This document shows, one piece after another, positions 42,001-51,000 of a stretch of 64,000 bases of DNA; the first letter of the stretch is position 1, and each line of letters opens with the position of its first letter. This DNA comes from an uncultured Gammaproteobacteria bacterium (GTDB lineage Bacteria; Pseudomonadota; Gammaproteobacteria; JAURND01). The position numbers were made by a program. The stretch lies in the NCBI GenBank assembly GCA_963777715.1, contig CAVZRN010000010.1, positions 22,211 to 86,210 on the forward strand, given 5' to 3'.

Positions 42001-45000
42001 TGCGCTCATGCTCAGGAGGTTTTGGATGATGTTGACCCACGTACATGGTCAACTATTAAACATGCACACCTTAGCAACTTCCCTGGGTATTTCAGGACCC
42101 ACCGTGCGACGTTACCTGGATATTTTGGCTGGGACGTTCATGGTGCGCCTGGTGCCTCCCTGGTTTGAGAATATCCACAAACGGCAAATCAAAACCCCAA
42201 AACTTTTTTTTCGTGATTCGGGGCTATTGCTAACTCTGTTAGGTATTCATTCGACAGATGATTTGCTGCATCACCCCATGTTGGGCGCGATATGGGAAGG
42301 ATTCGCCATGGAACAGGTCATACAATCGCTGGGGTTGCGACCAGAAGAAGCTTTTTTCTGGCGTACTCATAACGGCGCTGAATTGGATTTATTTACGTTG
42401 CCATCGGGTCAGCGCATCGGTTTTGAATTTAAGTTTGCCGACACGCCGCGTACAACAAAATCAATGCACCAGGCACTTGAAGATTTACAATTGGCGCATT
42501 TATACGTTATTTACCCGGGGCAGCGAACGATTGTATTGACGGAAAAAGTAACCGCCATGGGACTGGAGCAATGGGTAAGGGAAAGAACGTCGAAACGTTG
42601 AGTTTCTCATTGTTCTTCTATAGACTTTCATCCAATGAAATTACACACTACAAACTAACGTGAATTAAACGGCAAAAATGATATTTATCTATAATTCACA
42701 CTATTTAACGGACTAAATAACAAATTCTGCTATGGTCAAACAAACTCCCACTCCCTCGTTCAAACCCATCGCCGTGGTCGGCATGGGCGCCTTGTTTCCA
42801 GGCTCCACCAATGTGAATGAATTTTGGCGCAATATCTTGCTGGGTCGAGATTTGACCAGTGAAGTTCCGCCGACACATTGGTTGCTGGAAGATTACTACA
42901 GCCCTGATCTAAAGGCGGTTGATAAAATATATTGTAAGCGTGCGGCATTTATTCCTACCGTGGATTTCGATACCGTGGAGTTTGGCGTTCCACCCAATAA
43001 TGTGCCTGCGATTGATACCTCACAACTGTTGGCATTGATGGTCGCTAAGCAAGTGCTCAGTGACGCCACGAATGGCAACTACACACAGCAAGACCTCAGC
43101 CGCGTCAGCGTGATATTGGGTAGTTCAACGCTGGAGGCGATTCAACACATGTCGGCACGTTTGCAGCGCCCGGTGTGGGAGCGCATGATGCGTGAATATG
43201 GCTTGCCCGCGGAAACTGTTGCAGCGCTGTCACAAAAAATCACCGATTGCTATACGCCATTACAAGAAAACAGTTTTCCTGGGCTATTGGCTAATGTGGT
43301 TGCCGGGCGCGTGGCGAATCGTTTTAATTTGGGCGGCACCAATTGTATTACCGATGCCGCCTGTGCCGGTTCATTGGCGGCAGCCTCGATGGCCATCAAT
43401 GAATTGCAGTGCGGCACCGCCGATATGGTGATTACCGGCGGGGTGGATACGTTAAACGACATCGTTATGACCATGTGTTTTGTGCTGGTGCAGGCATTGT
43501 CATTAACCGGCGATTGCCGACCGTTTTCAGATAAGGCCGATGGTACGTTGCTCGGTGAAGGCCTGGGTATGCTGGCGCTAAAGCGCCTGGAGGACGCTGA
43601 GGCGCAAGGCGATCGCATTTACGCCGTTATTCGCGGGCTGGGCACATCCAGCGATGGCCGCAACAAAAGTATTTATGCGCCGGTGGCGGCAGGTCAGGCT
43701 AAGGCGATTGCGCGCACCTATGCCATGGCGGGTTATGCGCCAGGCACGGTGGAATTAATCGAAGCACATGGCACCGCCACCAAGGCGGGTGATGTGGCAG
43801 AGTTCGCCGGGTTAACCACGGCCCTAAGTCAGGATAACAAGCGACAACACTGCGCCCTTGGCTCCATTAAGTCGCAGATGGGACACACCAAGTCTGCCGC
43901 AGGCGCCGCAGGATTGATGAAGGCGATTTTAGCCGTGCAGCATCAAGTATTACCACCAACGCTCAAGGTCGAAAAACCGAATCCCACGTTTAACATCACA
44001 GAATCACCGTTATATATTAATACCCAATTGCGACCGTGGATTCGCAACAGCCAACATCCACGTCGTGCTGGCGTCAGTTCGTTTGGTTTTGGCGGCAGTA
44101 ATTATCACGTTACCGTGGAAGAGTACGTAGGTCCTGGTAAAAAGGCACAGCGATTGCGCACCTTTCCAACCGAACTAATCATACTTGGTGCAGAAAATCC
44201 AGCGGCGCTGCTTGTCTGTATTGATACCCAGCTGCAACAACTGGACGATGGGCAGTCGTTAGCCTATATCGCGCGCCAAACTCAGCGTAATTGGCAAGAG
44301 CAACACAAGACGCGCCTGGGCATCGTCGCCAGCGATAGCGCCAATCTGCGACAAAAATTGCAACAGGCACAGCAACAAATAAAGGCCGCGCCGGATAATG
44401 CACTGCATCTGTTGCAAGGTATTTACTACAGTGGTGCAAACGCTACCCCTGGCAAGGTTATGTGGTTATTCCCCGGGCAGGGAAGCCAATACGTGTCGAT
44501 GGGCGCTGATTTGACCATGGCCTTTAGCGCGTGTCAGGCTGTGTGGACGCAAGTGGCGGATACGGCATTTACGGGAGAGGAGCTAGCCCTGCAGGATGTG
44601 GTCTTTCCGATTCCGGTGTTTACAGAACAAGAGTTGCTCGCGCAACAACAGCGTTTGACCTCCACCGCCTGGGCGCAGCCTGCGTTGGCGGTAACAAGCT
44701 TAGTACAACTGGCATTGCTTAAACAGTTACGCATTAAACCCCATTATTTAGCAGGCCATAGTTTTGGCGAATTGGCGGCATTGTTTGCCGCTGGCGTCAT
44801 GGATGAAGCGACGCTACTGCAATTAGCACGCAAGCGTGGCGAATTGATGCAGGCGGCTGCGAAAACGCCTGGCGCCATGTTGGCGATCATGCAGCCGGTG
44901 GAAGAAAGCCTGCGTACGATCAAGGCTGAGCAGTGGGACGTCACTCCGGCCAACTATAATGCGCCACAACAACTGGTTATTTCGGGCAGTGTGGCGGCAA

Positions 45001-48000: not shown

Positions 48001-51000
48001 ATCGCGGCCAACAACAGAAATAGCTACGCCTGCAGTAGCACCAACCACACAACAATTTACCGTTAGCATTGACGTTAATTCGCATCCTTATTTAACCAGC
48101 CATGTGATTCAAGGCATACCCGTTATTCCCGCTTGTTTAGTGATGGAATGGTTTATGCGCGCTGCTCAAGCGCACTATCCAGATATAATGCGTGTAACCT
48201 GCCAACATTTTCGCGTATTACGCGGCATTCGTCTGACAGAATTTTATCAACGGCCACAGCAATTCGTGGTGACATCGCGCGTGCAACCCGATAATCCACA
48301 ACAACTACAAGTATCCTTGCATGCGCCAGATAAACCACTACCTGCGTATTATTCTGCTGAAATAACGCTAACGACGGATACATCGGTTGTGCCGATTGCA
48401 TTTGATACAACAGTAGCCAACGCATGGCCATATACGCTGCAAGAAATATATGACCCACCCAACAATCCATTGGCATTATTTCACGGCCAACATTTTCAAG
48501 CCATTAGTAACCTGCAAAAGGTGTTAGATTATGGTGGCGTTGCAGAAATTAAGGGCGTGCATGCGATGCAATGGCCAGATGATTGGCAACTTGATTTAGT
48601 AGCGATCGACAGCGCCTTTCAATTACTGTGGTTGTGGGGCGCACGCATGCTCGGCAAACCCAGCTTACCGATGGCAGTTGGTTCGCTGCGTGTATTTGCA
48701 CCACCTACACGCAATGAGCGCCTAACGTGTGCATTCAACAGCCAGGTATGTGGTCATGATAAAACCGTATCGACGGTGGATCTGGCAGACAGTACAGGTA
48801 AATTGTATGCCAGATTACAGGATGTAGAGATGGTTTGTTATGATGTTAAGGTGGATAATCGTGTAGAAGTAATGAACGTTTAATTTAAAGAGACATATTT
48901 TATGGATATGAATAACCACTGTACTGAAAAACTATTTTCTTATGGTGTATTACAAGATGAGTCAGTTCAATTGCGCGCGTTTGGGCGTAAATTAAATGGC
49001 ACTAAAGATAATCTTATTGGCTACCAACTTTCTACCATAGAAGTTCATGATACCGACGCGGTAGCTACAAGCGGTACAGCCGTTCATCCTATTCTCATAT
49101 ATACTGGCAATAGGATTAACAAGGTTGCGGGAATGGTTTTTGATGTTACCCCGGAAGAATTAAAACGAGCGGATGCATATGAAGTTACGGATTACGAACG
49201 CATCTCTGTCCATCTGCAATCAGGTGTGCGTGCATGGGTATATATCCATCGCACTAAATAAAACCCATTATTTTGTGAGAAATAATGTAGAACGTCGTCA
49301 CGCAACATAACGTGACGTAATTTTACGTGACGTGACTGGGCGTTATGACGACTGCGTCGTTTTGTAAAACCAAGGGAGATGCAAGTGTTGACACGCGATA
49401 AAAGTAGGGATGGTTTAAAAAATCGCATAGAGTATTTTTTACTAACTAATTTTCAAGCATTCTGGGATTTTATCTACAACCGTGCGTTTTTGAATCGTCG
49501 CTTCAAAAAGCTCATGTTGAACAAGAAGCTCTACACCATTCCATCACGTCCTTATCCATTTAGTACTTGGGGACCTTATACCTCGTGGGATTCATTAACT
49601 GATCGCAGTTATAACAGTCGCTTTCTACCGCCAGCGCCAAAATTTAATCAACAACTGCCACCCATTGGTGAGGTGGCTAAGTTGTTTATACGCCCACCTA
49701 ACGCTACCCAATATTCATATCGCACCTCGTTACTATTGCCTGTATTTGCTTCTTGGTTTATTGACAGCTTTTTTCGCACAGACCGCAGTAATAATTTGAA
49801 AAACCACAGTACTCAGCAATTGGATTTGAGCCAACTATATGGTTTTCAACATAGCACCACCGAATTATTGCGTGCGAAAAGTGGCGGAAAATTAAAAAGC
49901 CAGATTATTAATGGAGAAGAATATCCGCCATATTGCTATCAAAATGGTGAACGCAAGGAAGAGTTTAAAGATTTGCACATTGCCCTGCCCTGGTATGACA
50001 TAAACCAGGTTAAAAAAGATACACTATTTGCCACCACTGAGCGTGGCAATATTCAAGTGGGTTACATGATGTTTAATGTCTTGTTTTTACGCGAACATAA
50101 TCGCCTATGCGATCTATTGGCGCAACATTATTCCGACTGGGATGACGAACGCTTGTTCCAAACCGCCAGATGTATTTGTATCGTGTTAATGTTGAAATTG
50201 ATTATTGAAGAATATGTATTTAATTTAGCGCCGTATAATTTTCGCTTCACCATCGATGCATCGCCATTCTATGGCGAAAAATGGTATCGCCCAAATTGGA
50301 TGACTGCCGAATTTAATTTATTATACCGCTGGCATTGCATGATGCCAGATAAAATGATGGCGGACGAACAGGCGGTTGCAATGGAAGAAACCATCTATAA
50401 CAATGCCTTGATTACACAGTTAGGATTGGGGAAAGTGTTTGAGATACACTCGCGCCAGCAAGCGGGAAAAATAACCTTGTTTAATACACCACCCGTATTG
50501 TTTCCCCTGGAAGAAGCCAGCATCAAAATGGCTAGAAACTCACAGTTAGCCAGCTACAATGATTATCGCGAATTTTTTGATATGCCGCGTATAACCGAGT
50601 TTCAACAAATTACCACTAATCCTGAGATTATTAATGCGTTAAAACAAGTCTATGGCCATGCGGACAATATGGAATTGTATGTGGGTTTGTTTGCGGAAGA
50701 ACCCTGGAGCAATACATCAGTGTTGCCTTATTTAATGGGTAGAATTGTGGTGATTGACGCCGTGCAAAATATTTTCACCAATCCGTTGCTATCCGAAAAT
50801 GTATTTAATGCCAACACGTTTTCTCCTATTGGCATGGAGGTCATTCAACAAACTAAAAGTTTTTCTGATATTTTAAATCGTAATGTTCCACAGAAAGACA
50901 AACCGTTCTTCGTCAGCCTTAGCGTCCCCGAGACCGGTGGCGTAAAATCCTGATGTTTTTTTAAATATTCAAGGAATGTAGGGTGGACACTGACGAATCC

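Follow-up and report, generated by a model that had tools for sequence, protein, structure and literature searches.

Introduction

Cyclooxygenase (COX)-type dioxygenases are known to obtain their fatty acids from the general lipid metabolism of the cell, and those of their genetic partners that are known work after them, on the hydroperoxide. According to the 2026 review PMC13049297, the linoleate 10S-dioxygenase (10S-DOX; UniProt B2J5P4) found in the cyanobacterial species Nostoc punctiforme converts oleate and linoleate to 10S-hydroperoxides, is ~31% identical to COX, retains three of the four membrane-binding helices and is partnered by a catalase-related 10S-hydroperoxide lyase that has a gene of its own (Brash et al. 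2014, cited via PMC13049297). At the site where COX carries ‘FthqF’, 10S-DOX has ‘FtdsF’ (PMC13049297). The fungal DOX-CYP fusions, that is the linoleate diol synthases (LDS)/Ppo proteins, consist of a tyrosyl-radical dioxygenase of the COX superfamily fused to a second pathway enzyme (PMC13049297). The types of Pfa-type polyunsaturated fatty acid (PUFA) or ‘secondary lipid’ synthases have been surveyed in PMC3098273. Here, we analyse a 64,000-nucleotide stretch of DNA from an uncultured gammaproteobacterium (contig CAVZRN010000010.1 of assembly GCA_963777715.1; this whole stretch is called the window below), in which the genes for a split PfaA-type polyketide synthase (PKS) lie ahead of a gene for a COX-type haem dioxygenase (42732-50953, plus strand).

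The identities of these components, their intact catalytic residues and the recurrence of the synthase-then-dioxygenase order in a second, diverged organism are established. What is new is the gene context, namely a PfaA-like pair ahead of the dioxygenase; the enzyme family itself is already known. Full-text literature searches turned up no account of a Pfa-type cluster, or of any other PKS cluster, that is tied to a dioxygenase of the COX superfamily, literature searches on PfaA in Legionella returned nothing relevant, and the words ‘oxygenase’ and ‘peroxidase’ are absent from the text of the Pfa-like cluster survey (PMC3098273). In our estimate, the chances are about even that the genes form an operon-like unit in which the PfaA-type synthase would build an unsaturated acyl chain and the dioxygenase would oxygenate this chain.

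A split PfaA gene pair ahead of a haem dioxygenase gene

ORF calling in the window returned four open reading frames (ORFs) on the plus strand, whose order and borders are exactly those given by the original prediction, an earlier note made from the sequence, and the Pfam assignments agree. The first two encode a ketosynthase-acyltransferase-acyl carrier protein (KS-AT-ACP) protein of 1240 aa (42732-46454) and a ketoreductase-dehydratase (KR-DH) protein of 810 aa (46451-48883), which Pfam domains, the PfaA profile TIGR02813 and motifs mark as the N- and C-terminal halves, respectively, of a PfaA that is split and has only one ACP. They are followed by an accessory gene for a GGACT/AIG2-like protein of 119 aa (48902-49261) and by the gene for a COX-type haem dioxygenase of fatty acids that belongs to the bacterial 10S-DOX family (49379-50953; 524 aa). 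The two synthase genes overlap by 4 nt (ATGA), through which the KR-DH gene appears to be translationally coupled to the KS-AT-ACP gene. A gap of 18 nt separates the KR-DH gene from the GGACT gene, and 117-123 nt lie between the latter and the dioxygenase gene. The likely start of the dioxygenase is the GTG at 49385 and not position 49379: the sequence AAGGGAG is found 6 nt upstream of this GTG, and the resulting 522-aa protein has also been called in an independent assembly of the identical sequence. The 119-aa protein matches the Pfam model GGACT (PF06094) with E 1e-9 and 39.4 bits (cut-off 22.8), and its comparison with the PDB sequences gave no significant match (best E 0.54).

Homology, fold and residues of the dioxygenase

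The haem protein is much closer to COX than to the plant alpha-dioxygenases (alpha-DOX). Homology to COX including the radical Tyr and the proximal His of LYRWH, which had been proposed from an alignment by eye, was borne out by profile, sequence and model comparisons. The Pfam model An_peroxidase matches with E 4.5e-49. Among the PDB sequences, phmmer found human/mouse COX-2 with E 1.8e-69, aligning residues 15-517 of the query to residues 55-552 of the chain, i.e. from the membrane-binding helices to the C-terminus of the chain, and COX-1 with E ~2e-60 (query 18-502), whereas plant alpha-dioxygenases were matched with merely E 1e-14 through the last 125 residues. The bit scores were 238 for COX-2 and 57 for alpha-DOX, as compared to 547-638 for the family matches P0002-P0120. 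An AlphaFold2 model calculated with 27 family sequences (predicted local distance difference test score, pLDDT, 79.3; predicted template modelling score, pTM, 0.85) superimposes on COX-2 with a template modelling (TM) score of 0.85, a root-mean-square deviation of 2.7-2.9 Å and 30% identity, and on alpha-dioxygenase with a TM score of 0.66.

COX residues are given here in ovine COX-1 numbering. The radical Tyr385 and the proximal His388 correspond to Tyr316 and His319 in LYRWH, and Tyr348 (Tyr279), Tyr355 (Tyr286), Val349, Leu352, Phe381, Leu384, Trp387 and Phe205/209/210 are kept as well. The distal peroxidase site is lost, as His207 is replaced by Asp129, Gln203 by Ser125 and His204 by Trp126. 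Channel residues also differ, Gly526, Ser530 and Gly533 being represented by Val457, Ala461 and Asn464, respectively. Signal peptide and EGF (epidermal growth factor) domain are absent, 14 residues preceding the aligned region, which begins at query residue 15. Because it has neither the peroxidase His/Gln pair nor the EGF domain nor Gly526/Ser530/Gly533, the window dioxygenase is not an animal-type COX. COX Arg120 aligns with Lys50, and we treat Lys50 as its equivalent provisionally, because the pLDDT of the model in this region is only 54-83. Arg81 had also been considered for this role and was rejected, since COX-2 Arg120 lies in LTSRSH, which aligns with Lys50.

Placement in the bacterial 10S-DOX family

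Because of its homology and its distal-site motif, the dioxygenase can be assigned to the family of the N. punctiforme linoleate 10S-dioxygenase. The protein is not an orphan cyclooxygenase, as it has relatives, at ~50% identity, in a bacterial family that has been characterised. From 5.8 billion clustered proteins, 2621 homologues with E <= 1e-10 were retrieved, the top 120 of which share 47-55% identity over the full length, with the single exception of P0001 at 79%. Named homologues stem mostly from cyanobacteria (Tolypothrix, Gloeocapsa PCC 7428, Nostoc punctiforme (P0073), Leptolyngbya and Moorena), and further ones from Chloroflexia, Abditibacterium and Singulisphaera. In the one-genome-per-species data, 534 stretches contain a relative, and 300 clusters of a library of 50%-identity representatives match at E <= 1e-30. 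The distal site of the window enzyme reads W126-F-I-D129; the Asp is present in 118 of 120 relatives and the Trp, standing for His204, in all 120. Asp at the distal-His position is thus a family trait, and it is compatible with dioxygenase activity. The ‘eicosanoid-like’ signal of the original prediction is not borne out: according to PMC13049297, the family makes C18 hydroperoxides and not prostaglandin endoperoxides, and the distal His is replaced by Asp. Fusions within the family join the dioxygenase to a patatin domain (P0362), to DUF2235 (P0118) or to a cytochrome P450 at either end (fusion proteins listed: P0361, P0376, P0387, P0362 and P0118), so the modules ‘lipase, dioxygenase, hydroperoxide-transforming haem enzyme’ appear to have been assembled in several ways in bacteria.

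The window enzyme and P0001 form a pair in a neighbour-joining tree rooted on COX-2 (30 of 30 bootstrap replicates), apart from the other sampled members, and 28 substitutions are common to both proteins at sites where conservation in the rest of the family is 85% or higher. Among these are the residues of the terminal substrate-recognition motif and several changes toward the COX residue, namely Phe132 (COX Phe210; Leu in the family), Leu283 (COX Leu352; Ile in the family), Met230 and Phe400. Lys50 is likewise found in both, as well as in P0002, a stand-alone relative of gammaproteobacterial type, whereas Ala, Val or Leu predominate at this position in the family. The terminal substrate-recognition motif, I/V-G-I-D-A-F-S-Q-A in the family, reads V-V-I-D-A-V-Q-N-I in the window enzyme; Asp-Ala is kept, five of the nine positions differ, and the pattern is shared by P0001 alone. 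These substitutions may reflect an altered substrate or binding mode.

Features of the split PfaA-type synthase

By Pfam, the KS-AT-ACP protein comprises ketoacyl-synt, Ketoacyl-synt_C, KAsynt_C_assoc, Acyl_transf_1 and one PP-binding domain, and the KR-DH protein comprises KR and PKS_DH_N/PS-DH. Among the NCBIfam models, both proteins score best against TIGR02813 (PfaA): KS-AT-ACP covers profile positions 8-1052 with 1009.8 bits (curated cut-off 1010.1), and KR-DH covers positions 1911-2564 with 340.3 bits. The two proteins can be read as a PfaA that is split in two and in which one ACP replaces the usual tandem array. Catalytic motifs are intact in KS (the Cys in TDAACAGS, HGTAT and GHTKSAAG), in AT (GHSFG), in KR (TGGARG and YAMAN) and in DH (the His in HVIQGIPVIP and the Asp in IDSAFQ), those of KR and DH being conserved with relatives. 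The single ACP motif, GIDSI, is located at residues 1190-1194, a tandem ACP array being absent, and the KR-DH protein terminates with the double-hotdog DH at residue 810, without a C-terminal phosphopantetheinyl transferase (PPTase) domain. Searches of the PDB sequences with the PKS proteins gave generic PKS matches only. KR-DH has many stand-alone homologues of 730-790 aa with 40-47% identity.

The original prediction had described the synthase as PfaA-like, with one ACP and without visible PfaB/C/D-like genes, and this description holds. Among the ORFs of at least 150 aa scanned in the 64-kb window, there is no gene for a PfaB/C/D-like protein, a ketosynthase-chain length factor (KS-CLF), an enoyl reductase (ER), a FabA-type DH or a PPTase. 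A dedicated off-loading acyltransferase or thioesterase for the synthase was likewise not found in the window, the only thioesterase (TE) domain of which belongs to an unrelated amine oxidase-adenylation-peptidyl carrier protein-TE protein encoded on the opposite strand. The synthase is thus PfaA-like but not a canonical PUFA synthase. Enediyne polyketide synthases (PKSE; KS-AT-ACP-KR-DH-PPTase), which are devoid of an ER, produce a conjugated polyene, and because the domain set without ER is the same, an unsaturated product is predicted for the window synthase. No enediyne cassette genes are found among the scanned ORFs of the window.

Conservation of the gene order

To place the locus among its relatives, we compared ~163 family loci, 80 from genomes, 80 from metagenomes and 3 retrieved via exact protein look-up, a few contigs occurring in both the genome and the metagenome set. 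A catalase-related gene is present in 75 of them, typically ~190 nt downstream on the same strand (first 81 loci analysed), and a P450 gene lies immediately upstream in 10; tblastn found neither partner gene in the window. A PfaA-like synthase beside the dioxygenase occurs in only two loci, namely the window, which was recovered identically from run ERR11523676 (L082), and L001, the locus that encodes P0001. None of the 80 metagenome loci, which were obtained by a search with the family alignment, has a dioxygenase that is more than 53% identical or a PfaA-like neighbour, and a metagenome scan with the single window protein as query returned no relatives.

In L001, a gap of 23 nt separates the end of the KR-DH gene at 3099 from the ATG at 3122 with which the homologous dioxygenase gene starts; the gene caller had extended the dioxygenase to an overlapping ATG at 3050. 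The contig ends inside the PKS, and identities to the window proteins amount to 79% for the dioxygenase, 58% for KR-DH and 82% for the ACP region at the contig edge. Synonymous sites are saturated, as 194 of the 405 codons for identical residues differ, and the non-synonymous divergence (dN) amounts to 0.16 in the dioxygenase and to 0.30 in KR-DH. The catalytic motifs of KR and DH are conserved between both loci, the KR Ser/Tyr stretch being identical over 31 residues. The genes further downstream in L001 (a 188-aa ORF, Abhydrolase_2, DGOK and others) are unrelated to those in the window. Since synonymous sites are saturated, motifs are kept and the downstream genes are different, the synthase-then-dioxygenase order has outlived a long divergence during which the downstream flank changed. 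Hence, the expectation that relatives share this adjacency held true for L001, across substantial divergence, but failed for the other ~160 family loci, from which the arrangement is absent. The GGACT gene, which the original prediction had listed among the co-oriented genes, occurs at the dioxygenase locus only in the window organism among the ~163 loci; L001 is without it, and it is probably not a core part of the unit.

All other split-PfaA relatives whose surroundings could be read (L083, L166/L167, L168, L169 and L171) belong to more complete Pfa-like clusters. The order is KS-AT-ACP, KR-DH and KS-CLF in L083. The L166/L167 cluster consists of genes for KS-AT-ACP, KR-DH, a PfaD-type ER and a fusion of a PlsC-type acyltransferase with two FabA domains, and L168, L169 and L171 encode KR-DH, KS-CLF, ER, acyltransferase and FabA-DH (the last could not be read in L171, whose final gene is without annotation). 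At the two PKS-linked loci, the window and L001, the dioxygenase gene stands where these relatives have their KS-CLF, ER, acyltransferase and FabA-DH partners. The cluster of L166 (10001-17107) is compact and without a KS-CLF gene, and a gene for a eukaryote-like Ser/Thr kinase lies nearby.

A bog metagenome contig (Ga0302181_10003938; L162, 2-6566) carries a distant family member (45% identity) together with its catalase-related partner. This gene pair lies in divergent orientation beside a gene for a fatty-acyl-AMP-ligase-ACP protein, which is followed by a PKS ketosynthase. Here, independently of the window locus, a COX-type dioxygenase again lies next to a PKS, albeit in a case of a different kind.

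Spacers and downstream insertion sequence

The AT-rich spacer of 130 nt upstream of the unit (42602-42731, plus strand), which contains a TATAAT-like box at ~42690, is a possible, if weak, candidate for an operon promoter, and a consensus promoter scan listed no site in it. Promoter and terminator consensus scans of the window were at or below chance and carry little weight; the same applies to a terminator-like match in the spacer before the dioxygenase gene, which is one of 19 as compared to 13.6 expected. This latter spacer (49262-49384, plus strand) stands out by its predicted RNA fold of -41.1 kcal/mol (z -4.28; none of 200 shuffles as stable), the last hairpin of which pairs the Shine-Dalgarno/start codon region of the dioxygenase gene. 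It also holds two copies of ACGTGACG and an inverted CGTCACG (motif count 3 versus 0.97 expected), and has no Rfam match. The spacer may represent a translational control element or an operator, and the dioxygenase may be under translational control of its own. Co-transcription of the unit is plausible.

A small, complete insertion sequence (IS) element with perfect 19-nt inverted repeats CTGACGAATCCTCACGAAT (50990-52311, plus strand), which encodes a DDE transposase (51107-52300; Pfam DDE_Tnp_1), is inserted 37 nt after the stop codon of the dioxygenase gene and marks the present downstream end of the locus. Because of this position, the original downstream context is disturbed. The window holds several IS elements; further remnants and mobile genes are an IS607-like resolvase and TnpB pair (53192-54996) and a truncated TnpB (28649-29395).

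A possible pathway and its alternatives

In the operon-like unit outlined above, the two-protein synthase would be primed and extended with malonyl units and would iterate condensation, ketoreduction and dehydration on its single ACP. Since neither an ER nor a FabA-type isomerising dehydratase is present, the enoyl or polyenoyl chain would be left unsaturated, and it would then be freed by a putative hydrolase. Trace peroxide would activate the haem to generate the Tyr316 radical, which would abstract an allylic hydrogen; addition of O2 would give a hydroperoxy lipid and subsequently a hydroxy or oxo lipid. With Asp129 in place of the distal His and Ser125 in place of Gln203, peroxidase turnover is expected to be low, and since the locus lacks a catalase-related or P450 partner, the pathway would end with the hydroperoxide or its reduced product. 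The membrane-binding helices suggest that the dioxygenase acts on the surface of the membrane. Both the GGACT gene and the structured leader would be organism-specific additions outside this core. The earlier proposal of a locus that both builds and oxygenates a lipid can therefore be retained insofar as ‘oxylipin pathway’ is a reasonable description; for the coupling itself, i.e. the action of the dioxygenase on the PKS product, gene order is the only indication.

Several observations weigh against such a coupling. The arrangement is found in two organisms only, which makes its conservation a single comparison. There is no thioesterase, PPTase, ER or CLF in the unit, and the synthase alone may not release its product. 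The non-conserved GGACT gene and the 117-123-nt structured spacer split the PKS genes from the dioxygenase gene, and independent regulation is possible. IS elements are located directly downstream, and the present gene order may be incomplete. Finally, the fusions to patatin and DUF2235 lipase-type domains in the family point to phospholipid-derived substrates, and the substrates of the sole family member that has been characterised are ordinary C18 fatty acids in free form (PMC13049297).

The dioxygenase could instead act on pre-formed free C16-C20 unsaturated acids that a lipase releases from the bacterium's own or from host membranes, in which case the adjacency to the PKS genes would reflect co-regulation or history. 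The use of oleate and linoleate by the characterised enzyme (PMC13049297) and the family fusions to patatin (P0362) and DUF2235 (P0118) are in line with this idea, and a candidate lipase is encoded 5.7 kb upstream of the PKS genes, i.e. a patatin-like phospholipase of 605 aa (35246-37063, plus strand; Pfam cNMP_binding, NTE_Ploop and Patatin). Moreover, Lys at the Arg120 position together with the kept Tyr355 would fit the binding of a free carboxylate, and the structured spacer could provide separate control. However, the 23-nt coupling to KR-DH in L001 has been kept across a deep divergence in which the downstream flank changed, and it is only in the two PKS-linked proteins that the clade-specific substitutions of the channel are found. 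The patatin-like protein, too, is a questionable partner: it gives no significant BLASTP alignment with the patatin domain of P0362, and between it and the PKS genes lie three unrelated genes, of which two are encoded on the opposite strand. We regard a supply from free fatty acids as possible but doubtful.

For tyrosyl-radical dioxygenases, as known from COX and LDS enzymology, a cis-unsaturated chain is a better substrate than a conjugated trans-polyene. Such a chain would be available if the PKS pair used ER, KS-CLF and FabA-DH encoded elsewhere, or FabI/FabZ, and if the mono- or polyunsaturated acid from this dispersed PUFA-type synthase were then oxygenated. Relatives of both PKS proteins are indeed always found in full Pfa-like clusters, and one full cluster, L166/L167, derives from a run adjacent in accession number to that of the window organism. 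Yet the scanned ORFs of the 64-kb window include no such genes, and the tetranucleotide correlation of L166 is r 0.84 as compared to r 0.95-0.96 for DNA of the same genome. An origin of L166/L167 from the window genome is not supported, as this value resembles that of other relatives, and L166 is probably a different organism. Thus, a dispersed synthase strikes us as decidedly unlikely. Even further down we place the possibility that the PKS genes are the decaying remnant of a Pfa-like cluster after IS-mediated rearrangement, with the dioxygenase gene as an unrelated insertion, which we consider highly improbable. The transposases and IS elements directly downstream and signs of erosion elsewhere in the window (a split sucC, the truncated TnpB) would agree with decay, but both long ORFs are intact and have all their catalytic motifs in two organisms between which synonymous sites have reached saturation, and L001, on whose 14.7 kb no transposase gene was called, shows the same gene order. 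The GC content falls from 53.5% in the KS-AT-ACP gene to 40% in the dioxygenase gene, which would likewise fit a remnant; reading this drop as a recent mosaic was rejected, because the same downward trend is repeated in L001 and is therefore probably compositional.

If the coupling of synthase and dioxygenase holds true, the locus would stand for a new oxylipin logic, i.e. a dedicated substrate supply by a cut-down PfaA-type synthase, and would offer a tractable three-gene system for learning what a PfaA module makes without ER, CLF and FabA partners. If it is not real, what remains is one more member of a known dioxygenase family, encoded by an unusual host. The 10S-DOX family extends into Legionellales-like bacteria rich in eukaryote-like proteins, and the drift of the channel toward the COX pattern bears on the evolution of COX specificity. 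A more far-reaching scenario is a self-contained oxylipin pathway, in which the minimal PfaA synthase would make a PUFA chain de novo and the COX-type enzyme would convert it to a mediator-like lipid that an intracellular, effector-rich bacterium uses on its eukaryotic host. We consider this scenario unlikely; it would be the first synthase-to-cyclooxygenase-type pathway in one operon, and the dioxygenase channel is more COX-like than that of the cyanobacterial relatives, including the basic residue at the Arg120 position.

Host and surroundings of the locus

The best relatives of the NAD(P)H-hydrate repair enzyme encoded in the window (12396-13940) are from Gammaproteobacteria (54%) and from ‘Candidiatus Paracoxiella cheracis’ (52%), a member of the Legionellales, Coxiellaceae. 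The source is probably an undescribed, Legionellales-like gammaproteobacterium. Large proteins with eukaryote-like repeats, i.e. a protein of 1724 aa with HEAT, OTU deubiquitinase-like and ankyrin regions (14887-20061) and a leucine-rich-repeat protein of 909 aa (38475-41204), would fit a host-associated lifestyle. The architecture of the patatin-like protein (35246-37063) resembles that of the eukaryotic neuropathy target esterase (NTE), and its patatin region weakly matches the model of the Dot/Icm effector VpdC.

The TE-containing protein mentioned above is a product of 1382 aa encoded at 30943-35091 (minus strand), in which adenylation, carrier and thioesterase domains come after an N-terminal FAD amine-oxidase-like domain; it is an unusual stand-alone enzyme of non-ribosomal peptide synthetase (NRPS)-like type. 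A row of genes for TfuA-like, YcaO and ThiF-rhodanese proteins (59569-63160, minus strand) is typical of thioamide- or azoline-forming peptide modification. The sucC gene (1500-2676) appears to be split into two overlapping ORFs at 1500-2330 (ATP-grasp) and 2137-2676 in different frames, which may reflect a frameshift, a pseudogene or an assembly error; sucD (2725-3597) is intact.

Comparison with known systems

With COX-1/COX-2, the window enzyme has in common the fold, Tyr385, His388, Tyr348, Tyr355 and a basic residue at the Arg120 position. However, it lacks the COX-type peroxidase site (His207, Gln203), and the geometry that permits endoperoxide cyclisation in COX (Gly526/Ser530/Gly533), and to which aspirin sensitivity is also tied, is not conserved, Val/Ala/Asn being present instead. 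Similarity to Nostoc 10S-DOX includes the missing EGF domain, three COX-like membrane-binding helices, the Tyr/His pair and the Tyr348 equivalent. As compared to this family, the window enzyme carries Ser at the Gln203 position and Lys rather than Ala/Val/Leu at the Arg120 position, and the catalase-related or P450 partner is absent from the window, a PfaA-type synthase lying upstream instead. The hosts differ as well, being a cyanobacterium in the case of 10S-DOX and a Legionellales-like gammaproteobacterium here.

On the side of the synthase, the KS-MAT-ACP-KR-DH order (MAT, malonyl acyltransferase) of Pfa-type PUFA and ‘secondary lipid’ synthases is also that of the window pair, and the products of the first two genes of split-PfaA clusters are 43-59% identical to the window PKS proteins. 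In contrast to these systems, the window synthase has a single ACP and consists of two proteins, and a haem dioxygenase replaces KS-CLF, ER, FabA-DH, acyltransferase and PPTase. The enediyne PKSE shares with it the set of reducing domains without ER, but the window synthase has no PPTase domain, and PfaA outscores any enediyne model. As for the linkage of the two activities, fungal DOX-CYP and bacterial P450-dioxygenase fusions likewise join a dioxygenase to a second enzyme of one lipid pathway, as proposed here. In these fusions, however, the partner transforms the hydroperoxide afterwards, whereas the partner in the window would act before the dioxygenase by making its substrate, and the link would be provided by an operon rather than by fusion.

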